Origin: Clostridia bacterium
GTDB lineage: Bacteria > Bacillota > Clostridia > Christensenellales > UBA3700
Assembly (NCBI GenBank): GCA_029060025.1
Contig: JAIDUV010000027.1
Coordinates: 33,862-97,861 of the forward strand
Length of the DNA: 64,000 nucleotides
Direction: 5' to 3'
The notes below the pieces were generated by a model. The model made no database searches. It was not told the DNA's origin and was given only the letters and a program-made list of their open reading frames with translations. The stretch's first letter is position 1. The number at the start of each line of letters is the position of its first letter. The position numbers and the translations under genes were made by a program. This document shows positions 37,610 through 51,966 of the stretch, in pieces.

Positions 37610-40600
37610 TTAAGCGGCATTTTGCATTGAAGCAGAACCAATGCCTGACGTAAAACCGCTGTTGTTGACGTTGCCGCTGTTGATAGTGCCGTCATTTCCC
37701 AAGTCTGACGGAGATTTTGTCAGAGTGGCTTGACATTGCGAAGAGTCGGAATCTTTGTAATAGCCGTGTCCGATTGCTGTAATTATAATACGGTATCCGC
37801 CATTTTCTGCGATGCTGCTGTCATACTCAATGCCATAGAGTTCCTTCAAGTCGTCAAAGTTGATGCTGTATCCTACGCTTCCTTCCGTCAGAATAGACGT
37901 TCTGCCTATTTCGATGATCTTGCTGTCGTTGATTTGAAGTTCTACAAGATATTCGTATCCATTTTGCACGCCTTGCCAACTTGCGTGAATTGCCGCTGAT
38001 TTAGTCTCTTCGTTGCCGTCGTCTTCGCTTATCGTTGCGGTAATAGTATCTTCTTCGACAGCCGTGAGTTTTTGGGTCGTGGAGTGCGCAATCATTGAGA
38101 TAGGCGAGTCTTTTATATTTGGATTTTCAGTATTGATTGCCTTTACTCTCACAGAGTGATCGCCCACTTTGTTGACGTATTGCGTAATGTCCGCGTTGAA
38201 CTTGTTGCCGTCTTCATTAAGAGTGAGATTGGTAATCTCTTTGTTGTCAATGAATATCTTGTATGCGTTTGCGTTCGGTACTTTGGTAAACTCAAAGAAA
38301 GTCTTGGTAGTCTCGTCTTCGGTCTTTGTATATACGCGAAGTCCGGTAGGCATATTAAGCGTGATTATATAGTCGTATTTTACTGATATAGAATCGCCGT
38401 TGACATACATTGTCGTAGATCCGATTTCCTCAAAGTTCAAATCGTCGGAGTAGTTGCCTTCAGGAGTAACAGTGATTGTATAACTCTTGCCCGGTGTCGA
38501 AACGTATTGCGTTATATCAAATTCCGGATCGTCAGAGGTGTTCTTTTCCCAGCGCAGAACTACGTCGTTTTCAGCCACGCCGTCGCTTATCAAGAATTGG
38601 TACGACTTTGCATACTTCACTTTAGCGGCTTTGCAATATATTCTGTTTTCTCTCTCTTCGATAATTATATCTATTGGTTGAGCCAACTTTTCAACGTAGA
38701 TTACGTTTTCGCAACCTGTCATATTATGGGTAGCGTTGAGGTCTCTGAAGATTATCAAATTCTTGACGTTTTGATACGTCGGGCAGGTGTGACCTTCTTG
38801 CATTATGACTTGCTTACCGCCTATGACGGTATTTGAGATATTGCCTGCGACAGTGGCGGTAGAGTCGCTGTCAAGTTGCAAAGTAGCAACGGTGCTATCG
38901 CTCTTAACCGTCAAGTTGCTGCCAATCAAAGAAATAGTATTTGAAATTTTTACTCCGCTTTCTACGATAGTATTGGGGCAGTTCAAGACGTTGATTTGGC
39001 TTGTAGACTTAGCGTCTATTATATTGCCTGCAAATACTACTTTACTTGCGCTTATCTCTGCGTCGATTATGTTGGTTTCGCCGCCTTCAAAGTTGTAGAT
39101 CGTAAATGATTTTGCCGTTACTCTCAAGGTTTCGCAAGATACGTTTGCCAAAAGTACGATGTCCAAGTTGGGAGCGTTTATTTCAATCGCGCCTGCTTTG
39201 AGGTTGGACTTTTTATGAGTGACAAATTCTTTACCTTTTCTAGTACCAATATACAGCGTGCCTGATTTTTCTGACGTGATAGTAAGAGTTCCGGATACGC
39301 CCAACGTGTGTTTGTTGAGGTCAATGCTATATATATTGTTGTCGTCAAAAGTCAAGTTGTCGCAAGAGATGTTGTTGTCAAGCACGTAGAAATATTTGTC
39401 AAGACCGCCTTGTTTGCTTGCGACGAAATCGTCTGCGTTCTTGACGAAAATTCTCGGAGCGTGGAAGAATACTATAGGCAGTATTATTGCCAAGAGCACT
39501 CCCACGAGGCATACGCTTGCAACTATGGCAATTATGCCTTTTTTGCCCAACTTTTTCTTTTGTCCGACAGGTTGGTCTTTCTTTTCTTTTTTATCGGATT
39601 TATCTTTTTTCTTTTTATCTTTGCTATCTTCGCTGTCTTCTTTTTTGTCGGAAGAACCGTCTTGAGTTACTTCTTCTGCTTTGTCTGCTTGGTCAGCGTC
39701 ACTTGATTGCAAAATAATCTCTCCGTGCAAAAACTCTTCCATAAGTTCTTCACCTGTGGAGAAGAAGAGTCCTGCTTCTTTTGCGTTTTCTTCGCTATAT
39801 GGCGCGCCTACTGCGGGGCTTTGCTCTTCGCCTGCTTTGCGAGCGTAGATTACAAACGGCACAGGATCGCTTGTGTGAGTCTTAAGCGAGAGCGGAGTAG
39901 GATGGTCTGGGGCAATGAGTATCTTGTAGTCCTCATTCATAAGGTCAAGTTGTTCTTTTACGTACTTGACTACTATGCTGTCTATAAGTTCAATAGATTT
40001 GACCTTGTTGTCAGCGTCTCCTTGGTGTCCGCACTCGTCGGGAGCCTCCATATGGATATATACGTAGTCGTATCCCTCTTTAAGAGCCTCTATGGCAGCC
40101 TCGGCTTTTCCCTTGAAGTTGGTCTTGTACGTACCGGTTGCGCCGTCTACGTTGATGACTTTCATTTGCGCGCCTGTTCCGATACCCTTTATCAAGTCTA
40201 CTGCAGATATGACTGCGCCCTTGATGCCGTACTTTTCTTCAAATGGAGTGAGTTGAGGGCGTGTGCCTTCGCCCCAAAGCCAAATGCTATTGGCAGGCTT
40301 TAGACCTTGAGCAATACGCTTTTGGTTTACAGGATGATCTTTTAGCAAATTGTAAGAATCCGTCATTATATCCAAAAAGATATCACCGTACTCGCCCTTG
40401 GGAAGATACTGAGTGATTTTCTTGTCGGAAATATCGTGCGGAGGAGTGAAGTCTGTGCCAGTCTCGGCATTGTGCGCAACGAGACAGTGGCGGTAACTTA
40501 CGCCAGTGTAGAAATCAATATATTCGTCTCCGAGATTTTGTTGGAGATATTCTATGAGTTGTCTTGCTTCCTCGGTAGAAATTTCGCCTGCGGAATAATC

Positions 40601-40939
40601 AACCATAGTCTTGTCGGCGTAGTTCTCTTCGTCGGATAGCGTGACGAGATTGCATCTAATAGCCACGTCGGTGTCCTTGAGGTCAATGCCGATCGAGAGC
40701 GCTTCGAGTGGGGAGCGCCCCGTATAGTACTTGTCGGGAGCGTAACCCATCATAGAGAGGTTTGCCACGTCGCTACCCGGCTTCATACCGTCGGGTACTG
40801 TCTTGACAAGACCCAATTTGCCTCTTTTACACAAGTCGTCTATATTTGGCTTGTCTGCTACTTCAAGAGGTGTGCGACCTCCGAGAGCGTTTGAAGGGTA
40901 ATCGGCCCAGCCGTCGCCCAAAATTACCACATACTTCAT
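37610..40939 (-). CDS. apgM: Cofactor-independent phosphoglycerate mutase (ApgM family) fused to a TM helix and a large extracellular domain
   Basis: GDGWAD, PGSDVANL, HMEAPDECGHQGD and PDHPTP...TH in residues ~1-408, then a D/K/E linker, TM IIAIVASVCLVGVLLAIILPIVFF and ~620 aa beta-rich region. Confidence 0.85.
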   Translation of the reverse strand: MKYVVILGDGWADYPSNALGGRTPLEVADKPNIDDLCKRGKLGLVKTVPDGMKPGSDVANLSMMGYAPDKYYTGRSPLEALSIGIDLKDTDVAIRCNLVTLSDEENYADKTMVDYSAGEISTEEARQLIEYLQQNLGDEYIDFYTGVSYRHCLVAHNAETGTDFTPPHDISDKKITQYLPKGEYGDIFLDIMTDSYNLLKDHPVNQKRIAQGLKPANSIWLWGEGTRPQLTPFEEKYGIKGAVISAVDLIKGIGTGAQMKVINVDGATGTYKTNFKGKAEAAIEALKEGYDYVYIHMEAPDECGHQGDADNKVKSIELIDSIVVKYVKEQLDLMNEDYKILIAPDHPTPLSLKTHTSDPVPFVIYARKAGEEQSPAVGAPYSEENAKEAGLFFSTGEELMEEFLHGEIILQSSDADQADKAEEVTQDGSSDKKEDSEDSKDKKKKDKSDKKEKKDQPVGQKKKLGKKGIIAIVASVCLVGVLLAIILPIVFFHAPRIFVKNADDFVASKQGGLDKYFYVLDNNISCDNLTFDDNNIYSIDLNKHTLGVSGTLTITSEKSGTLYIGTRKGKEFVTHKKSNLKAGAIEINAPNLDIVLLANVSCETLRVTAKSFTIYNFEGGETNIIDAEISASKVVFAGNIIDAKSTSQINVLNCPNTIVESGVKISNTISLIGSNLTVKSDSTVATLQLDSDSTATVAGNISNTVIGGKQVIMQEGHTCPTYQNVKNLIIFRDLNATHNMTGCENVIYVEKLAQPIDIIIEERENRIYCKAAKVKYAKSYQFLISDGVAENDVVLRWEKNTSDDPEFDITQYVSTPGKSYTITVTPEGNYSDDLNFEEIGSTTMYVNGDSISVKYDYIITLNMPTGLRVYTKTEDETTKTFFEFTKVPNANAYKIFIDNKEITNLTLNEDGNKFNADITQYVNKVGDHSVRVKAINTENPNIKDSPISMIAHSTTQKLTAVEEDTITATISEDDGNEETKSAAIHASWQGVQNGYEYLVELQINDSKIIEIGRTSILTEGSVGYSINFDDLKELYGIEYDSSIAENGGYRIIITAIGHGYYKDSDSSQCQATLTKSPSDLGNDGTINSGNVNNSGFTSGIGSASMQNAA

Positions 40940-41074
40940 ATTTTCACCTATATAAGAATGCGTAACGCTACGCATAATTTATTCACAGTTTATTATATTA
41001 TATATAATATCCAATGTCAATTGTTTTATGACTAAGATTATTTAAAGTAACGGGGCGCGCTTTTTATAAAGATT

Positions 41075-42643: not shown

Positions 42644-42890
42644 ATTGTACCTACCTTTTTTGATTTATTTCAAAATCAATTTTATTATAGCAAATTTCGC
42701 TTGCATAATCAAATACTTGATATAAAAAATTCTTGATTTTTTCAACAAATTTTGGGAATATTTTCGCGCGCACGCGTATACGCGAAAATATTATAGATAT
42801 TTATTATCAATATTCTTATCTTTGAGAGTGGAGAGGTTGCGGCGCTGTAAAAGACGCGTGTCTATTGCGCTTTTACGTGTTTGATTATGC

Positions 42891-42925
42891 AACAAGGACG
42901 AAGCCTTGCGGTCTTCGTCCCTGTT
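42891..42925 (-). terminator. Hairpin / probable terminator after GSIII
   Basis: Minus strand aacagggacgaag-accgcaagg-cttcgtccttgtt. Confidence 0.6.
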
Positions 42926-42953
42926 CTAATGTACAACCTTTATATCGTATTTA

Positions 42954-45038
42954 TCAGTCCTTGACTGAGAAGAGAATTGCTCCGTAAGTTGGGAACGGCC
43001 AATACTTGTCGGCGGTATTGACTTCCATCTCGTCTGCCGCGGCGCGCAACTTGTCCATTGCTGTAATTACGTCCGTGCGGTAGAACATTGCCTTTTTTTC
43101 GATGTCTGCGATAGCCTCCGCCTTGTGAACTTTTGTTGACAGTTCTTCGAGATACTTATACGCGTCTGCCGAGAGTTTTGTCAACTTCTTTGCGGTAGCC
43201 GTCTGCGCAGTTGCTTCAAATCCCAATTCTTTTGTTGCTAAGGCGGTCTTTGCAAGTTCTTTTATGTATGTAGTTACAGCGGGCAAAATCTGCTTGTTTG
43301 CCATATCTATCATTGTCAAAGCCTCGATGTTGACGACTTTTGCATAGTTCTCAAGCAAGATGTCCGTTCTGGATTCTACTTCCAAAGCAGAGAATATGCC
43401 GTGCTTTTCAAAGAGGGCTATATTCTTTGCGCTCTTGAAGTAGGGGATTGCTTCCGGCGTAGATTGCAAGTTGAGAAGTCCTCTCTTTTTTGCCTCTACC
43501 ACCCATTCGTCGGAATAGCCGTTGCCATTGAATATTATTTTCTTGTGAGCAATGAAAGTCTTCTTGACAAGGTCTTTGACTGCCGCCATAAAGTCGCTTG
43601 CGCCTTCAAGTTCGTCAGCGAATTGGTCGAGGGATTCTGCGACTATAGTATTGAGTATAATATTAGGTCCGGCAATAGAGAAGGTCGAGCCCAACATTCT
43701 GAATTCAAATTTGTTGCCTGTGAACGCAAATGGGGAAGTACGGTTTCTGTCGGTGGTGTCCTTTGTGAACTTGGGCAGAGAACTTACGCCGATTTCGTAT
43801 TCGCATTTTGCTCTTTTGCTGTACGTTCTGTCTTCGGCAATTGCCGTGAGTATGCCGTCGAGTTCTTCGCCGAGGAACATTGATACTATAGCAGGAGGCG
43901 CTTCGTTGGCTCCAAGTCTGTGATCGTTGCCTGCGCTTGCTACGCTTACTCTCAATAGGTCTTGATAATCGTCTACCGCCTTTATGACCGCAGCCAAGAA
44001 GAGTAAGAATTGCGCGTTGTCTTCCGGAGTGTCACCCGGCTCAAGCAGGTTTTCGCCCTTGTCCGTCGACATAGACCAGTTGTTGTGTTTGCCGCTTCCG
44101 TTGACGCCTTCAAAAGGCTTTTCGTGGAGCAGACATACCATTCCGTGACGGCTAGCAATCTTTTTCATCATCTCCATTGTCAACTGATTTGCGTCGGAAG
44201 ACACGTTGGATTGCGAGAAGATAGGCGCAAGTTCGTGCTGAGCGGGCGCAACTTCGTTGTGCTTTGTCTTGGCTAGCACGCCGAGTTTCCAAAGTTCGGT
44301 GTCGAGGTCTGCCATATACTTGACGACTCTTTGCTTGATAGTGCCGAAATAGTGGTCTTCAAGTTCTTGCCCCTTTGGAGCGGGTGCGCCGTAAAGCGTA
44401 CGGCCGGTGTATATCAAGTCCTTTCTCTTTTCATATACGCTTTTGTCAATGAGGAAGTATTCTTGCTCTGGACCTACGGTCGTAATGACTCTGTTGACGT
44501 CTTTGCCGAAAAGTTTGAGTATTCTGCACGCCGTTTTGCTAAGCGCTTTCATTGACTTAAGAAGAGGAGTTTTTTTGTCGAGAACTTCTCCGGTATACGA
44601 TACGAACGCCGTCGGTATGCAAAGCGTTCCGTCTTTGATAAACGCGTACGAAGTCGGGTCCCAAGCCGTATAGCCTCTTGCTTCAAAAGTGGCTCTGATA
44701 CCGCCGTTGGGGAAAGAAGACGCGTCTGGCTCGCCCTTAATGAGTTCTTTTCCGCTGAATTCCATTATTACTTTGCCGTCGGCAGTGGGTTGAATAAAGG
44801 CGTCGTGCTTTTCCGCCGTGATACCCGTCATCGGTTGAAACCAGTGGGTATAGTGTGTACAACCTTTTTCTATTGCCCAATCCTTCATTGCGTTGGCAAT
44901 AACCGTCGCGCAAGTCAAAGAAATAGGAGTGTCGTTTGCGATACAGGATTTGAGTTCCTTGTATGTGTACTTGGGAAGTCTTTCTTGCATTACCGTGTCG
45001 TTGAATACTAGACTGCCGAAGAGGTCTGACATTACCAT
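42954..45038 (-). CDS. glnN: Glutamine synthetase type III
   Basis: [82 protein letters not shown] all intact. Confidence 0.95.
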
Positions 45039-45073
45039 ATTTGTTATATCTCCTTAAAATTTGTTTCTGTTGT

Positions 45074-45156
45074 AAAAGAAAAAGCGCCAAACAGGGAATT
45101 CCTGATTAGCGCCTTTGCTACAGTGACAGTATATATTTTCTGGAGAAAGATGTCAA
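45074..45156 (-). promoter_or_regulatory. GSIII promoter and leader: ANTAR-type hairpin overlapping an intrinsic terminator
   Basis: TTGACA (45156-45151)-17-TATACT (45133-45128). Hairpin TAGC-AAAGGC-GCTA (45120-45107). Terminator GGCGCTAATCAGG/CCTGTTTGGCGCT + TTTTCTTTT. Confidence 0.8.
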
Positions 45157-45297
45157 ACGATTTTAATAGTAATTTTTGGATTTTTTTGATTTTTTGTCAA
45201 AATGTTTTTGCAAGTCGTCGTAATATCAAGGCGGTAGAGAGGGGGTAGTATACAGTAGAGAATTCTTTGCTTGGGGCGAAATGGCATCATAAAGATT

Positions 45298-45335
45298 GAG
45301 ATTCTCCACTTCGCTTTGCTGCGCTCGAAATGACA
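45298..45335. repeat. REP-like repeat family I, right half
   Basis: gagattctccacttcgctttgctgcgctcgaaatgaca. Confidence 0.7.
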
Positions 45336-45710
45336 TACTATATTATTGACATATTTTTGTCGTTAAGGTTGTCATTGTGTTATACGCAATGACTGAAAAG
45401 GGAAATCGTAGCAATATTTTGCGCGCGAAATAATATAAATATTTATATGGACAATATAGGAAAATATAATCAAAATCAGCGAGTCTTTTCAGTGTGGCAA
45501 AATTATCGTAATAATTGTCATATAATGGATAAATGTCAATTAAATATGTAAATTTGAGCAATATAAATTCTTAAATTAGTCAGAATTTAGAAAATATAAA
45601 AGAAATCAAAAATATTTTTTTCAATTTATTGACAAGGACAATTTGGGAGTATTATAATTGCACCAAAGGAAGGGGCGAGAGACTTTTTCGTCCTTTAAAA
45701 GGTTTGTACT

Positions 45711-46805
45711 ATGTTGAAAGAAGGTGAGGTGAGAATACCGTCGGGATGCGCGATTTCGGGCATATTTTCCAGAAGCGGAAAACTCACCAACGGAGAGAAG
45801 ATCATTACGTCGATAGCCACTATGCACGACAGATCCAACGGTTTAGGCGGCGGTTTTGCAGGGTATGGAATTTATCCGCAATACGCAGATTTTTATGCTT
45901 TTCATATTTTCTACGACGACAATGAGATAAGAAAAGAGGCGGAGAATTTTCTCTACCAAAACTTTTTCATTGTCAATATGTCTATGATACCCATACGAAA
46001 GACCAAGAAGATATCTGACGAGCCGCTCATTTTGAGATACTTCGTCAAGCCTCTTGACGCAAGATTGCACGAGACAAATCTCGACGAAAAAGAATTTGTT
46101 GCCAGAATGGTAATAAAAGTTAATACGACTATCAAAGGCGCGTATATCTTTTCAAGCGGAAAGAATATGGGAATTTTCAAGGCGGTAGGTTATCCCGAGG
46201 ACGTAGGAGAGTATTATAGGCTGGAGGAATACGACGCTTACTGTTGGACGGCGCACGGCAGATATCCGACTAATACGCCCGGTTGGTGGGGCGGAGCGCA
46301 CCCATTCGGTATGCTTGATTATTCCGTCGTGCACAACGGAGAAATTTCTTCTTACGACGCCAACAGACGGTATATAGAGATGTTTGGATATAAGTGTACG
46401 CTTATGACGGACACCGAAGTAATTGCTTACGTCGTAGACTTTTTATGCCGCCGTCAGGGCTTGAGTATGCAGGAGATGGCAGGGGTCATAGCCGCGCCGT
46501 TCTGGAGTACGATAGAGAAAAAATCTCCCGAGGAGAGAGCGCTTGCCGAATACTTGCGCAATACTTTCTCAAGTTTGCTTATCACCGGACCTTTTAGCAT
46601 AATGGTGGGATTTGAAAACGGACTTATGGCGCTCAACGACAGGCTTAAGTTGCGCAGTATGGTCGTGGGTGAAAAGGACGATATGACGTATATCGCAAGC
46701 GAAGAATGCGCTATAAGAGTAATTGAGCCAAACCTTGACAGAATTTGGTCACCGAGGGGCGGAGAACCTGTAATAGTCACTCTTGACAAAAAGGAGGGAA
46801 AATAA
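45711..46805 (+). CDS. Class-II glutamine amidotransferase, split glutamate synthase subunit (GltB1 type)
   Basis: SGCAI N-terminal nucleophile, DRSNGLGGG, HGRYPTNT.GWWGGAHPF, HNGEI, DTEV, DRLKLR. Confidence 0.9.
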   Translation: MLKEGEVRIPSGCAISGIFSRSGKLTNGEKIITSIATMHDRSNGLGGGFAGYGIYPQYADFYAFHIFYDDNEIRKEAENFLYQNFFIVNMSMIPIRKTKKISDEPLILRYFVKPLDARLHETNLDEKEFVARMVIKVNTTIKGAYIFSSGKNMGIFKAVGYPEDVGEYYRLEEYDAYCWTAHGRYPTNTPGWWGGAHPFGMLDYSVVHNGEISSYDANRRYIEMFGYKCTLMTDTEVIAYVVDFLCRRQGLSMQEMAGVIAAPFWSTIEKKSPEERALAEYLRNTFSSLLITGPFSIMVGFENGLMALNDRLKLRSMVVGEKDDMTYIASEECAIRVIEPNLDRIWSPRGGEPVIVTLDKKEGK

Positions 46806-46806
46806 T

Positions 46807-48312
46807 ATGTCGATAAATTATATATATCCTCCGTATGAAGTCGTAAGAAATTTTAGTAAGTGCATAAATTGCAAGATATGCGTCAAGCAGTGCGCCAACG
46901 AGGTGCATACTTTTGACGAGAAGAAAGGCATAATGCTTGCCGATGATACCAAGTGCGTCAACTGTCACAGGTGCGTTACCACTTGCCCTACGAGAGCGCT
47001 AAAGATTGTCAAATCTGACAATACATATAAAGAAAACGCCAACTGGTCGGCGGAGTCTATGAAGGAGATTTACCGTCAGGCGGAGAGCGGCGGAGTTTTG
47101 TTGTCGTCTATGGGTAATCCTCAGCCTTTGCCGGTGTATTGGGACAAGATACTTATCAATGCTTCGCAGGTAACAAATCCCTCTATCGACCCATTGAGAG
47201 AACCTATGGAAACTACGGTATTCTTGGGTAGTAAACCCGATAAAATCGTCAGAGACGAAAATGGCAAAATCGTTGACAATCTGTCACCGCAACTCAAATT
47301 GAGTACGCCTATTATGTTTTCGGCAATGAGTTATGGCTCTATAAGTTACAACGCTCACGCGGCGCTTGCCAAGGCGGCGGAAAAGTTGGGAATATTCTAT
47401 AACACAGGCGAGGGCGGTCTACACGAGGACTTTTATCAGTACGGCAAAAATACTATCGTGCAAGTTGCGTCGGGGAGATTTGGCGTATATAAAGATTATC
47501 TTGAGGCGGGCGAGTGTATAGAAATCAAGATAGGTCAAGGCGCTAAGCCTGGTATAGGCGGACACTTGCCGGGCGCAAAGATCGTGGGAGACATCTCAAA
47601 GACGAGAATGATACCTGTAGGCAGTGACGCCATATCTCCCGCGCCTCACCACGATATTTATTCTATTGAAGACTTGCGTCAACTTGTATTTTCTCTCAAA
47701 GAAGCAACAGGATATAAGAAGCCAATCGCAGTCAAAGTCGCGGCAGTGCACAACGTGGCTGCCGTCGCAAGCGGTATTGCTAGAAGTGGCGCAGATATAA
47801 TCGTCATTGACGGCTTTAGAGGTGGCACCGGAGCGGCGCCAACGAGAATAAGAGACAACGTGGGTATTCCTATCGAACTTGCCCTTGCTAGCGTAGACAA
47901 GAGACTGCGTGACGAGGGTATCAGAGGCAACGTGTCTTTGGTAGTAGGCGGCTCTATTCGCAACAGCGCGGACGTCATAAAAGCAATTGCATTGGGCGCT
48001 GACGCTTGTTATATTGCCACTGCGGCGCTTATGGCAATGGGCTGTCACCTTTGCAGGTCTTGTCACCTCGGTAAATGCAATTGGGGTATCGCAACTCAAG
48101 TGCCGGAACTCGTAAAGAGACTTGACCCCGAGGTCGGCTGTAACCGACTTGTCAACCTCGTCACCGCTTGGACGCACGAAATCAAAGAGATGATGGGCGG
48201 TATGGGTATCAACTCTATAGAGGCGCTCAAAGGCAACAGGCTTATGCTTAGAGGCGTGGGACTTAATGAGAGGGAGTTGGAGATTTTAGGCATCAAACAC
48301 GCCGGCGAATAA
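46807..48312 (+). CDS. Glutamate synthase FMN-binding subunit with 2x[4Fe-4S] (GltB2 type)
   Basis: CxxCxxCxxxC twice, MSYGS, NTGEGG, QVASGRFGV, KIGQGAKPG.GGHLPG.K, SPAPHHDIYSIEDL, C..C..C..G.C..G.ATQ. Confidence 0.93.
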   Translation: MSINYIYPPYEVVRNFSKCINCKICVKQCANEVHTFDEKKGIMLADDTKCVNCHRCVTTCPTRALKIVKSDNTYKENANWSAESMKEIYRQAESGGVLLSSMGNPQPLPVYWDKILINASQVTNPSIDPLREPMETTVFLGSKPDKIVRDENGKIVDNLSPQLKLSTPIMFSAMSYGSISYNAHAALAKAAEKLGIFYNTGEGGLHEDFYQYGKNTIVQVASGRFGVYKDYLEAGECIEIKIGQGAKPGIGGHLPGAKIVGDISKTRMIPVGSDAISPAPHHDIYSIEDLRQLVFSLKEATGYKKPIAVKVAAVHNVAAVASGIARSGADIIVIDGFRGGTGAAPTRIRDNVGIPIELALASVDKRLRDEGIRGNVSLVVGGSIRNSADVIKAIALGADACYIATAALMAMGCHLCRSCHLGKCNWGIATQVPELVKRLDPEVGCNRLVNLVTAWTHEIKEMMGGMGINSIEALKGNRLMLRGVGLNERELEILGIKHAGE

Positions 48313-48313
48313 T

Positions 48314-48445
48314 GCGACCGCATATATCAGCCGTCTTTTTGCCGTAGGCGTCGGGTCTCAAGAAGTCGACGTGTACGGCAAGTACACTTGACGACTTCAT
48401 TTCGCCCTAGCACGGACAAAAATACAACTAATCTCTGCGGTTGTT
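48314..48445. repeat. Structured intergenic repeat (family II), copy without insert
   Basis: Aligns with 3284-3455; nested stems. Confidence 0.8.
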
Positions 48446-48567
48446 CACGGCAAGATATAATGGCAAGTAAATTGAAATTTTGTCTATCTCTTTTTTGCCG
48501 AACATAAGCGCGTATAGCGGCTCACTTGAGACAAAGAGTAAACTACTATAGCAGTGCGCTATCATAT

Positions 48568-48605
48568 TGTCATTTCGACTGCAGCGTAGCGTAATGGAGA
48601 AATCT
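48568..48605. repeat. REP-like repeat family I, left half
   Basis: tgtcatttcgactgcagcgtagcgtaatggagaaatct matches 62061-62153 once the insert there is removed. Confidence 0.75.
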
Positions 48606-48652
48606 AATCTAATAAATATCAAATATTACTCCAAGAGGAGAAACAAAGAACA

Positions 48653-49375
48653 ATGTTAAAAATTGATTGTACCAATAAACACTTTTCTGAGATAGGAAAG
48701 TTGATACGCGAAACCAAAGAAACTCAAATAGTAATCGACAATGCGCAAGGACACAGATATATTGCGTCGGGCGTGGGCGGCAAGGAGATAACTATCAATG
48801 GCACTCCCGGCAACGCAATGGGCGCATATCTTGACGGCTGTAAGATTGTAGTTAACGGCAGCGCGCAAGACGCTATCGGAGATACTATGAACGACGGACT
48901 TATTGTCATTCACGGCAACAGCGGAGACGCCACCGGATATTCTATGCGCGGCGGAAAGATTTTTATCAAAGGTGATGCGGGTTATCGCGCAGGTATACAT
49001 ATCAAGGCGTATAAGGATAAATTTCCGGTGATTGTCATTGGCGGAAAGGCAGGAAGTTTTCTTGGAGAATACCAAGCCGGCGGTATTATACTTGTGCTTG
49101 GCATTGACACCGACAGCAAGACAAACGTAGGTTATTTTACCGGCAACGGTATGCACGGCGGCAAGATAATCTTACGTAGCGAACAATTGCCCGACCTGCC
49201 CGAGCAAATAGTTGCAAGAAAGGCAAATGCCCAAGATCTAAAAGAGATAGAGCAGTACGTCAACGAGTATTGCGGATATTTTGGCAACGACCCCAAGGAG
49301 ATAATGAGCAAGGATTTCTTTGTGTTGACGGCTAATAGCGCGAATCCGTATAAGCAATTATATACGTCGGTGTAA
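48653..49375 (+). CDS. Glutamate synthase C-terminal GXGXG subunit (GltB3 type)
   Basis: Repeated G..G...G..M.GG beta-helix motifs (GDTMNDG, GYSMRGG, GEYQAGG, GNGMHGG). Confidence 0.9.
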   Translation: MLKIDCTNKHFSEIGKLIRETKETQIVIDNAQGHRYIASGVGGKEITINGTPGNAMGAYLDGCKIVVNGSAQDAIGDTMNDGLIVIHGNSGDATGYSMRGGKIFIKGDAGYRAGIHIKAYKDKFPVIVIGGKAGSFLGEYQAGGIILVLGIDTDSKTNVGYFTGNGMHGGKIILRSEQLPDLPEQIVARKANAQDLKEIEQYVNEYCGYFGNDPKEIMSKDFFVLTANSANPYKQLYTSV

Positions 49376-50030: not shown

Positions 50031-51332
50031 ATGAGTCAAACGGTAAAAGAAGTTTTGGATTTTGTAAAAGACAACGACGTCAAATTTGTCAAATTGACTT
50101 TTTGCGACTCCTTCGGAAATATCAAAAATATATCAATCATAGCCGACGAGTTGCCAAGCGCCTTCGAAAAGGGAGTATCATTTGAAGCCTATTCGGTGGG
50201 CGGCTTCGTCGACCCGGAAGAAAGCGACTTGTTGCTTTACCCAGACGCCTCAACTATTCAACTGTTGCCTTGGAGACCCCAGCACGGAAGCGTAGTGAGG
50301 TTTTTTTGTAAGATAAGACATACCGACGGCAGAGACTTTGACGGTGACGGCAGAGGACTTCTTGCCAATGCGCAAAACAAACTTTCGCAGATGGGCTTGT
50401 CCTGTCTTATCGGCAGTGACTGCGAGTTCTATCTCTTCAAGTTGAACGAAGACGGAACGCCTACGCTCGAGCCGCACGATATGGCGGGGTATCTCGACGT
50501 TGCGCCGTTTGACAAAGGCGAAAACGTAAGAAGAGATATTTGCCTTACGCTGGAGAGAATGGGTATCAAGCCTATCTCTTCTCACCACGAAAGAGGACCT
50601 GGACAAAATGAAATATGCTTCAAAGTCAACGACGCCCTTATGGCTGCGGACGACCTCTTGACATTCAAGACGGTGGTCAAAGCCGTGGCTAATATGAACG
50701 GACTTCACGCGTCTTTTATGCCAAAGCCGCTTAAGGACGAGATAGGAAGCGGTCTGCATATCAATTTGTCTCTTCTCAAAGACGGCGACAATTTGTTTGA
50801 ACCGTCGCGCCTGTCGGGATCTAAAGAGGCTGAGAGTTTTGTTGCGGGCATACTTGCAAGGGCAAAGGAAATGGCGGTATTTCTCAATCCTACCGTCAAC
50901 TCGTATGAGAGACTTGAAAACAACGAAGATATAGAGGCTTACAATCAAATTGCTTGGTCGTATCTCAACGGTCGTCAATTGATAAGGATAAAAAAAGACG
51001 GACTTGCCAAGATGCAATTGCGTTCTGCAGACCCATCTTGCAATCCGTATATCGCGTACGCGCTCTTGCTATTTGCAGGCGCAGAGGGAATAGAGCAGGG
51101 GCTTAGATTGCCAAAGGAGTTGGACGTCAACAACGCGGGCGAAGCAGAATGTCTGCCCGAAGACCTTATGAGCGCAATCCAACTTGCTAAAAACAGTGAC
51201 TTTATCGCAAGGTACATACCTAGCAAGACGTTGAAAAAATTCTTTGAGTATAAGGAAAATATGTACAAGAATTATTCGCTGTCAAAGGATAAGGACGCTT
51301 TTATGACAAAGGCATACTTCAATAAGATTTAA
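50031..51332 (+). CDS. Glutamine synthetase type I-like protein with degenerate active site
   Basis: GS-I fold motifs ESDLLLYPD, SHHE.GPGQNEI, FMPKP, NPTVNSY and DP.CNPY are present, but several catalytic motifs are altered (see findings). Confidence 0.85.
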   Translation: MSQTVKEVLDFVKDNDVKFVKLTFCDSFGNIKNISIIADELPSAFEKGVSFEAYSVGGFVDPEESDLLLYPDASTIQLLPWRPQHGSVVRFFCKIRHTDGRDFDGDGRGLLANAQNKLSQMGLSCLIGSDCEFYLFKLNEDGTPTLEPHDMAGYLDVAPFDKGENVRRDICLTLERMGIKPISSHHERGPGQNEICFKVNDALMAADDLLTFKTVVKAVANMNGLHASFMPKPLKDEIGSGLHINLSLLKDGDNLFEPSRLSGSKEAESFVAGILARAKEMAVFLNPTVNSYERLENNEDIEAYNQIAWSYLNGRQLIRIKKDGLAKMQLRSADPSCNPYIAYALLLFAGAEGIEQGLRLPKELDVNNAGEAECLPEDLMSAIQLAKNSDFIARYIPSKTLKKFFEYKENMYKNYSLSKDKDAFMTKAYFNKI

Positions 51333-51396: not shown

Positions 51397-51966
51397 GTGG
51401 CAAGTGCCCTAATAGTGTCGACAGCGGAATATGTGAGTAAGTTTTCGGCAATGTTGACCGAAGTGGGCTTTGCTGACGTCTATCAGGCTCATTCGGGAGT
51501 TGAGGCAAGACATCTGATAGTCGAAAGGCAATACGCGCTTATGATAATCAATGCTCCTCTCGTCGACGAGTTTGGATACGACCTTGCGATATACGCGGTG
51601 GAAAATACGACTATGAGCGTACTTATGCTGGCGCGGGGAGACGTGTGCGAGGCGGTGGAAAACAAAGTCGAAGATTACGGAGTTGTGGTTATGTCAAAGC
51701 CGGTGACGGCAGAAGGCTTGTTTAAGACCTTGAAAGCGCTGTACGCCAATCACAACCGAATAAATTCGATAGTGCTAAGCAATCGCAGATTGCAAGACAA
51801 GATAGAGGAACTCAAACTGGTGGACAGGGCAAAGTGCTTGCTTATCTCACGCGAAGGAATGAGCGAAGAGCAGGCGCATAAGTATATCGAAACCGCCGCT
51901 ATGGATATGAGAGTGTCCAAAAAACAAATTGCTGAAAAAATTATATCAATAAAACAATACGATTAA
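51397..51966 (+). CDS. ANTAR-domain antiterminator with pseudo-receiver domain (AmiR/NasT/NitR-like)
   Basis: GTG start with AGGAG RBS. ANTAR motif VDRAKCLLI..EGMSEEQAH.YI...AMDMRVSK. Receiver lacks the acidic pocket and phospho-Asp. Confidence 0.9.
   Translation: MASALIVSTAEYVSKFSAMLTEVGFADVYQAHSGVEARHLIVERQYALMIINAPLVDEFGYDLAIYAVENTTMSVLMLARGDVCEAVENKVEDYGVVVMSKPVTAEGLFKTLKALYANHNRINSIVLSNRRLQDKIEELKLVDRAKCLLISREGMSEEQAHKYIETAAMDMRVSKKQIAEKIISIKQYD

Follow-up and report, generated by a model that had tools for sequence, protein, structure and literature searches.

The gene for glutamine synthetase type III (GSIII) in a 64,000-nt stretch of contig JAIDUV010000027.1 from an uncultured, gut-type Clostridia bacterium (assembly GCA_029060025.1; the whole stretch is referred to as the window) is preceded by a short leader that combines a promoter, a small hairpin with an ANTAR-type hexaloop and an intrinsic terminator. 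Comparison of this leader with its relatives shows a real and widely conserved attenuator, which most likely serves an ANTAR regulator of the NitR type as its output switch, with a single hairpin. The more specific proposition, namely that a protein-dependent attenuator with one recognition hairpin, read by the ANTAR protein, stands before GSIII, appears probable, with a confidence that is substantial but stops clearly short of certainty.

The promoter TTGACA-17-TATACT, the gap of about 7 nt (GTCACTG) and the hairpin TAGC-AAAGGC-GCTA are present base for base on the minus strand, with exactly the coordinates reported in an initial annotation made from the letters alone (Table 1). The hairpin (UAGC-AAAGGC-GCUA in the RNA) has the stem of at least 3 bp expected of an ANTAR target, and its hexaloop carries an A in position 1 and a G in position 4 (A1 and G4), the residues that define ANTAR sites (PMC3369936). 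The closing pairs are also important in EutV sites (PMC3369936, PMC3369931). The same annotation had proposed that the 3' half of the hairpin doubles as the 5' arm of a terminator located upstream of the ribosome binding site, which both the sequence and the folds bear out. The complete leader folds as the terminator, with an energy of -25.2 kcal/mol (z = -3.79; none of 200 shuffled sequences folds as well). The terminator 5' arm takes in all six loop positions of the hairpin together with its 3' half, so the two structures are mutually exclusive. When the growing transcript is folded, the small hairpin is stable up to 35 nt and the terminator takes over from 40 nt; when the hairpin is forced, a 4-bp apical terminator stem is left that no longer abuts the U-run. 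The suggested closeness to the EutV-type element is likewise present, with 11 of 12 positions matching AGCAANGRRGCY, which we take to be that element.

A simple terminator-pattern scan of the window did not list the GSIII-leader terminator, probably because its long stem contains an internal mismatch. A search against Rfam yields no match at gathering thresholds in the window, and chance-level matches alone at E up to 10 in the region 44950-45750. The apical hairpin of the terminator was considered as a second ANTAR hairpin and rejected, its loop being 4-7 nt long, variable and devoid of a conserved A1 and G4. The U-run that follows the apical hairpin was considered as a conserved pause signal; it is present in the window but is not kept in relatives.

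In close relatives, the element is consistently found in the same place. Of 41 related genomes searched with the first 200 residues of GSIII, 35 matched, and the best 30 loci were taken. Of these 30, 25 have the hairpin and the terminator upstream of GSIII, among them every one of the 22 loci from the genus of the window, where both follow the same promoter; the distance to the gene is about 200 nt longer in L009, and L006 has AAAGAC as its loop. Five loci lack the element at GSIII. In three of them (L025, L028 and L030), GSIII follows another, asnA-like gene; in the genome of L025, the element stands before this upstream gene. The leader of L023 is of another kind, and no motif is seen in L029. 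In an alignment of the 25 leaders, which were chosen by sequence pattern, 90.6% of the terminator cells are paired and 9 of 16 pairs are changed on both sides, whereas none of 500 shuffles reaches any of the main measures. Loop position 5 of the hairpin covaries with the terminator 3' arm, mostly as G-C, with G-U in L005 and L007 and A-U in L006. A covariance model of the element (R1) identifies one strong site per genome in the 22 other genomes of the genus that contain GSIII, always in the GSIII leader; the 23rd genome, G011, has no GSIII match and a chance-level R1 match (E 0.45). Additional R1 matches represent the same terminator read on the opposite strand. The genome-wide scan for the same hairpin and terminator that had been suggested as a check was carried out as two independent pattern scans of the organism's own genome, with 23 and 8 candidates, among which the window site is the only one with a promoter and a good terminator. 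Two cruder scans were dropped: raw sequence patterns proved uninformative, GCAANGGCGC being common in coding DNA, and a scan for pairs of A..G.. hexaloop hairpins at most 40 nt apart returned noise (329 pairs among 5662 hairpins).

The element is also widespread outside the genus. Among 80 loci (1.24 Mb) around relatives of the ANTAR protein, taken from named genomes, 41 contain R1 matches, e.g., those from Clostridium cuniculi, C. disporicum, Romboutsia, Harryflintia, Ruthenibacterium, C. methylpentosum, Sedimentibacter, Defluviitalea and Fusibacter, and from metagenome-assembled genomes (MAGs) of Lachnospiraceae and Oscillospiraceae. Cultured species in which this leader accompanies the same gene pair include Harryflintia acetispora DSM 100433, Ruthenibacterium lactatiformans, Sedimentibacter saalensis DSM 13558, C. 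cuniculi and C. disporicum. A model-free scan of the same 80 loci for a hairpin with an A..G.. hexaloop, the 3' side of which pairs with a downstream arm beside a U-run, produces 60 candidates; 43 of these, in 35 loci, have a promoter with at least 9 of 12 matches just upstream. The 43 promoter-proximal modules precede GSIII (20), the first glutamate synthase (GOGAT) gene (11), the operon of a glutamine synthetase (GS)-like gene and the ANTAR gene (7), or other genes (5). Further modules precede an asnA-GSIII pair, an amtB-like gene and a gene of unknown function. The loop is constant across the targets while the stems differ: (A)CAGC/GCUG(U) in GSIII leaders, (AU)GAAC/GUUC(AU) in GOGAT and GS-like leaders, and AAAGGC-AAAGGU-GUCUUU in the leader of the second GSIII paralogue. 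Because the stem classes track the target gene and the loop is common to all of them, the hairpin classes provide no test of protein-RNA specificity among paralogues and were dropped for this purpose as non-discriminating.

Several variants of this arrangement were encountered. In L064 (G026:C1:496650-497150) and L075 (G035:C6), the leader of an amtB-like gene or of a second GSIII copy contains two hairpin and terminator modules in series (e.g., TAGC-AAGGGC-GCU..., then ACAC-AATGGC-GTGT), each with one hexaloop. Some genomes of the same genus (G009, G014 and G021) possess a second GOGAT/GS-like/ANTAR/GSIII cluster with a distant ANTAR paralogue (about 37% identity in the sister genome G011), and the leaders of this cluster contain AAAGGC-AAAGGU-GUCUUU before GSIII and AAUGAGC-AAAGGC-GUUCAUU before GOGAT. 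A third GSIII paralogue, which starts with MKLPENFG (L076, G012:C27:56800-57300, and L077, G004:C12), has no hairpin; in G012, its promoter is directly followed by TGTAAACAAAATTTACA, which fits what we take to be the consensus of the GlnR/TnrA box, TGTNAN7TNACA.

The hairpin itself was measured in 66 leaders, i.e., the 25 aligned ones and the 41 R1 matches, with L086 (loop GAAGGC) not scored as a hairpin. The 65 scored loops are AAAGGC (43), AAAGAC (5), AACGGC (5), AAAGGT (5), AATGGC (3), AAGGGC (3) and AATAGC (1). Thus, every leader but L086, which has G1, carries A1 (65 of 66), G4 occurs in 64 of 65, and loop positions A2, G5 and C6 are conserved as well. Across the 57 leaders informative for hairpin covariation, the two closing pairs, G-C and C-G, are invariant, the third pair is A-U in 53, and the fourth is CG in 34, UA in 14, UG in 3 and another combination in 4. 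The number of hairpin cells changed on both sides is 18 compared with 8.6 in shuffles, and the covariation score is 0.187 compared with 0.132; none of 500 shuffles is as high in either measure. These patterns agree with the original assignment of the hairpin to the ANTAR type.

The same patterns bear on a possible role at the DNA level. The inverted repeat extends from about +1 to +16, where repressors often bind, and the GlnR/TnrA-like box before the third GSIII paralogue of G012 occupies that very place, so the repeat might be an operator for a dimeric repressor, with the terminator acting as a leaky, constitutive one. However, the asymmetric center of the repeat, AAAGGC, is its best conserved part and the arms vary with compensation, which is the reverse of the operator pattern and argues for an RNA element; furthermore, loop positions 4-6 covary with the terminator 3' arm about 30 nt away. 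The operator explanation is therefore very improbable.

The position of the promoter leaves no room for an upstream hairpin, as initially claimed. A promoter with at least 9 of 12 matches is found in 63 of the 65 leaders (at least 11 of 12 in 55), the -10 hexamer in these 63 ends 6-13 nt before the first paired base, and TTGACA or a one-off variant occupies the -35 place in most of the 65. The exceptions are L088 (Romboutsia), in which the better promoter is located some 20 nt upstream, and L151, which is probably spurious. The 17-nt spacers vary freely between species while the hexamers are fixed, a pattern that marks a promoter and not an RNA helix. In the 45 nt upstream, 6 of 65 leaders have a second A..G.. 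hexaloop hairpin, compared with 6.2 expected from shuffles; most of these six overlap the promoter, three of them the TTGAC of the -35 hexamer. Within 1-15 nt upstream, the range of the canonical linker, there is none among the 60 model-free candidates. Thus, the two tandem hexaloop hairpins with a short linker (P1 and P2) that characterize canonical ANTAR targets are not found here, and the single-hairpin variant proposed in the initial annotation is supported, with the promoter standing in place of P1. A canonical two-hairpin leader could still be imagined if transcription started further upstream, e.g., at a second, weaker promoter-like site (45200-45172, 10 of 12 matches), with P1 hidden in the promoter-like stretch; given the free variation of the spacer between fixed hexamers and the chance rate of upstream hairpins, this appears extremely unlikely. 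Judging from the promoter position, the 5' end of the transcript would lie about 0-6 nt before the hairpin. The narrow spacing suggests that the 5'-terminal position matters, but a leader that is simply minimal would look alike.

The presumed reader of the hairpin is the only ANTAR (PF03861) gene found in the assembly (2.04 Mb, 98 contigs, 92.9% complete), and it is located 6.3 kb from the leader. Its nearest named relatives come from MAGs labelled Clostridia bacterium or uncultured Christensenella sp. Along its length, the ANTAR protein can be aligned with Rv1626 (8.9e-14) and EutV (3.4e-10; 6WSH/6WW6). The phospho-acceptor Asp of the motifs 'DVKMP' of Rv1626 and 'DIQMP' of EutV is replaced by Asn (Asn52, at least 90% conserved in 18 homologues), so the receiver-like domain is, like that of AmiR, a pseudo-receiver. 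In EutV, G4 is held by residues that include K149, E160 and Y164, the last of which stacks on it (PMC8934654); the counterparts of K149 and E160 are kept as Lys and Glu, and Y164 corresponds to an invariant His.

As in NitR systems, the ANTAR gene is directly downstream of a gene of the GS-I type (50031-51332 and 51397-51966), and a full-span GS-like match, nearly always ending just before the ANTAR gene, is present in 73 of the 80 loci. The GS-like protein of the window is close to Bacillus subtilis GS (1.4e-96), with the Glu of 'VEVRS' changed to Gln ('KMQLRSADP') and the first Glu of 'EPEFF' to Asp. Presumably, these Glu residues are catalytic metal ligands. The Glu-to-Gln change is confined to the lineage of the window (L080-L085), the residue being mostly kept elsewhere; in other lineages (the L080-L159 set), the first Glu of the motif 'E.EFYLF' is often K, R or A in the ANTAR-linked GS. 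The repeated loss of different, presumably catalytic residues hints at a sensor role for these proteins. The label 'pseudo-GS' given to the protein by the initial annotation is thus plausible for the window's lineage, where the Glu-to-Gln change would fit it if the residue has the role assumed here, but it does not describe a trait of the family.

The leader is linked to this ANTAR gene by gene order and co-occurrence. The PF03861 domain is found in 30 of the 41 relatives and, in several families, 6-7 kb separate the ANTAR gene from GSIII, a spacing like that of the window. Of 150 further genomes sampled across the class (cut-offs of E <= 0.001 for R1 and E <= 1e-20 for this ANTAR type), 19 contain an R1 match, and 18 of these 19 carry the ANTAR type compared with 43 of the 131 genomes that lack a match; in 11 of the 19, the match and the ANTAR gene are within 10 kb on the same contig. 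As relatives are non-independent, the model is narrow and 39 candidates per genome were scored, these figures express an association, not a probability. One natural deletion is also informative: G012 (same genus, 96% complete; L022, and L078, G012:C26:158400-166000) no longer has, between GSIII and carA, the GOGAT/GS-like/ANTAR block, and a PF03861 search found no ANTAR gene in this genome. Its GSIII leader is the only one with a G4-to-A loop, a single case in which the change also unpairs the terminator base beside the U-run. Synteny, co-occurrence and this deletion together favor the earlier suggestion that the leader is the output switch of the GS-like/ANTAR pair.

The persistence of the G012 leader after the loss of the ANTAR gene can also be taken as a sign that the same switch is read by another RNA-binding protein, such as the GS-like protein itself or one of the PII type, or by a small ligand. 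The genome G133, with a motif match and no ANTAR gene of this type, points the same way, and the GS-like gene accompanies the system as tightly as the ANTAR gene does. This possibility is nevertheless clearly unlikely: the loop has both ANTAR-defining residues and matches the element bound by GnfR, the ANTAR gene co-occurs with the motif and keeps its 6-7-kb synteny across families, and a 14-nt hairpin is probably too small for a ligand pocket. Co-occurrence is relevant to a simpler alternative as well. Hairpins at the 5' end can protect mRNAs in Firmicutes, and in these leaders the hairpin is always 5'-terminal; it might accordingly do no more than stabilise the GSIII mRNA, with a partial terminator that damps expression and no switch at all. 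The invariant loop, the obligatory overlap with the terminator, the restriction to nitrogen genes and the co-occurrence with ANTAR would all be left unexplained, which makes this a very unlikely account.

Among characterized systems, the closest structural parallel is offered by EutV of Enterococcus faecalis and its eutP, eutG, eutS and eutA leaders, which have the same A1/G4 hexaloop, conserved closing pairs and a hairpin 3' half that is part of the terminator 5' arm; EutV and the window protein both combine receiver-type, coiled-coil and ANTAR regions in about 190 aa. They differ in that EutV is phosphorylated by EutW whereas the window receiver has Asn in the acceptor position, in that EutV Y164 and R142 are replaced by His and Leu, and in that the window loop conserves A2, G5 and C6 as well. 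The leaders differ as well: eut leaders need both P1 and P2, with a 5-12-nt linker, and here a promoter is in P1's place. In the original work on EutV, deletion of P1 abolished induction and a single stem-loop was bound more weakly (Ramesh 2012; PMC3369931). [quoted passage not shown]

A nitrogen-related parallel is GnfK/GnfR of Geobacter sulfurreducens (Ueki and Lovley 2010; PMC2995071). Phosphorylated GnfR binds RNA with CAGGCAAGGGCGCC next to terminators, and its consensus, CAGGCAANGGCGCC, is described, for the nif, glnK and amtB leaders, as located 'upstream of and overlapping' their terminators. If this consensus is read as a hairpin, it becomes GGC-AANGGC-GCC (GGC-AAGGGC-GCC for the bound RNA), with the same loop and closing pairs as here; the hairpin reading is ours, as the authors, in the passages considered, did not present the element as a hexaloop hairpin. 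Thus, in both systems an ANTAR protein controls nitrogen genes with one element per terminator, but GnfR, a genuine response regulator, depends on a kinase for activation, and its targets (nif, glnK and amtB) have RpoN promoters.

With respect to gene order, the counterpart is NitR of C. saccharobutylicum and C. acetobutylicum (glnA-nitR), which PMC6316151 and PMC4676874 cite as an ANTAR antiterminator of GS/GOGAT under nitrogen limitation. There, too, the ANTAR gene comes right after a GS-I gene, as in the window and nearly all of the 73 loci; however, the GS adjoining NitR is described as a working enzyme, whereas the GS-like protein of the window has the Glu-to-Gln change and the main target is GSIII. 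Control by a partner protein instead of phosphorylation is typical of AmiC/AmiR of Pseudomonas and NasS/NasT of Paracoccus, in which an ANTAR pseudo-receiver or receiver protein is ruled in this way; AmiC and NasS are periplasmic-binding-protein-like and unrelated to GS, and a 2025 review, in the passages considered, describes their targets and all other ANTAR targets that it lists as dual hairpins (PMC12591593). For Firmicutes, Ramesh Table S2 already places ANTAR sites, again dual hairpins, ahead of glutamine and glutamate synthase genes, and the part of that table examined lists no GSIII leader of the genus Clostridium. A literature search for a single-hexaloop ANTAR antiterminator turned up Walshe 2022 alone, the original NitR account (Stutz 2007) lying outside its coverage.

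These comparisons suggest the following mechanism for the switch. RNA polymerase would start at TTGACA-17-TATACT, and the 4-bp UAGC-AAAGGC-GCUA hairpin would be almost the first RNA made. If this hairpin is unheld, the terminator 3' arm, made about 20 nt later, would invade it because the loop bases and the 3' half of the hairpin are the pairing partners of that arm; the 15-16-bp terminator would then form against the U-run and transcription would end before GSIII. When nitrogen is limiting, the pseudo-receiver ANTAR protein (189 aa) would presumably be released in its active form. If AmiC/AmiR and NasS/NasT are a guide, the signal probably reaches it by way of the GS-like protein, the gene for which directly precedes its own. 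An ANTAR dimer may then bind loop A1, A2 and G4 together with the closing C-G/G-C pairs and block the invasion; with the hairpin held, the 4-bp apical stem would be detached from the U-run and polymerase would read into GSIII. The recruitment hairpin P1 of canonical leaders would have no part in these events, its place being occupied by the promoter.

Several points weigh against the single-hairpin ANTAR switch and are considered together here. One-hairpin antitermination would contradict what is known of EutV, the best-studied case, in which P1 is needed, and would require some compensation; Walshe 2022 expected single hexaloops only where the transcribing polymerase sets no time limit (PMC8934654), and with about 20 nt between the hairpin and the invading arm, the regulator would have to arrive in time without P1. 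The ANTAR protein of the window has Leu for EutV R142. As regards the comparative data, the narrow R1 model has no match in 131 genomes, of which 43 carry the ANTAR type all the same, and G133 shows the opposite combination; the covariation of the hairpin is mainly that of one pair, which is itself also constrained by the terminator; and the conservation figures are partly circular because the leaders were chosen with the motif pattern.

A possible, although rather doubtful, way to account for the missing P1 is that NitR-type ANTAR proteins represent a separate, promoter-coupled mode of antitermination in which one hexaloop is enough if it is the first structure of the transcript, at most about 6 nt from the 5' end. 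Three reasons can be envisaged: the nascent RNA might receive the regulator at the promoter or close to it; early elongation might provide the time that P1 buys in eut leaders; and a protein-locked 5' hairpin might shield the read-through mRNA from 5'-end-dependent decay.

The remaining features of the locus are summarized in Table 1.

Table 1. Features of the GSIII leader and of the associated genes, in window coordinates
Feature	Position	Strand	Basis or remark
-35 hexamer TTGACA	45151..45156	-	sequence reading and promoter scan
-10 hexamer TATACT, 17-nt spacer from -35	45128..45133	-	promoter scan, 11/12 matches
ANTAR-type hairpin UAGC-AAAGGC-GCUA	45107..45120	-	hexaloop 45116-45111, A1 and G4
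Intrinsic terminator stem-loop	45080..45116	-	fold and covariation; apical stem CAGG/CCUG
Terminator 5' arm AAAGGCGCUAA	45116-45106	-	entire hairpin loop and hairpin 3' half
Terminator U-run TTTTTCTTTT	45074..45083	-	sequence and fold
Ribosome binding site AAGGAG	45050..45055	-	sequence
Glutamine synthetase type III (GSIII), 694 aa, ATG 45038	42954..45038	-	Pfam GSIII_N 2.5e-80, Gln-synt_C-ter, Gln-synt_C
Split glutamate synthase (GOGAT), divergent from GSIII	45711-49375		
GS-I-like protein, 433 aa, presumed sensor partner	50031..51332	+	Pfam and alignments
Pseudo-receiver and ANTAR protein, 189 aa, presumed reader	51397..51966	+	ANTAR domain 3.4e-16; receiver match weak

The ANTAR gene is followed by carA and carB. 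Directly after the GSIII stop codon (42860-42953, minus strand), there is a GC-rich hairpin, GGACGAAG...CTTCGTCC, followed by TTGTT, so GSIII is probably monocistronic, with a separate promoter region for the downstream purF-like gene. The leader of the GOGAT operon (45659-45710, plus strand), which follows the perfect promoter TTGACA-18-TATAAT (45629-45658), was considered as a second ANTAR site and rejected: it folds into a stable hairpin (-15.2 kcal/mol) that has neither the hexaloop nor a U-run. In other Clostridia, the GOGAT operon opens with a GAAC-AAAGGC-GUUC hairpin and a terminator, and the genus of the window therefore seems to have lost this site. A short intergenic repeat, GTCATTTCGA..GCAGC..AGCG.A.TGGAGAA.CTC, occurs in four copies in the assembly, two in the window (45293-45333, minus strand, and 48570-48610, plus strand) and one each on contigs C14 and C64; two of the copies flank glutamate synthase genes. 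Elsewhere in the window, a 1121-aa protein (37610-40975, minus strand) matches cofactor-independent phosphoglycerate mutase and related metalloenzyme families over its first 385 or so residues only, and no Pfam family matches the other 700 or so.

In the textbook account, ANTAR antitermination takes two hairpins, and the leaders described here form a large and coherent natural set that lacks the first hairpin, found in Christensenellales-like MAGs, Oscillospiraceae, Ruminococcus, Clostridium, Romboutsia, Sedimentibacter and Lachnospiraceae, before central genes of ammonium assimilation. This set makes testable the question raised by the 2022 EutV-RNA structure, i.e., what P1 is for and when one hexaloop suffices. 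In many gut and rumen Clostridia, the nitrogen regulons will have escaped published searches based on dual-hairpin models, and a 14-nt hairpin with a terminator is a very compact regulatory part. If the promoter-coupled mode of antitermination proves true, the GS-like protein would be the glutamine- and ATP-sensing subunit of a two-protein riboregulator that governs nitrogen assimilation in a large share of the gut and rumen Clostridia.

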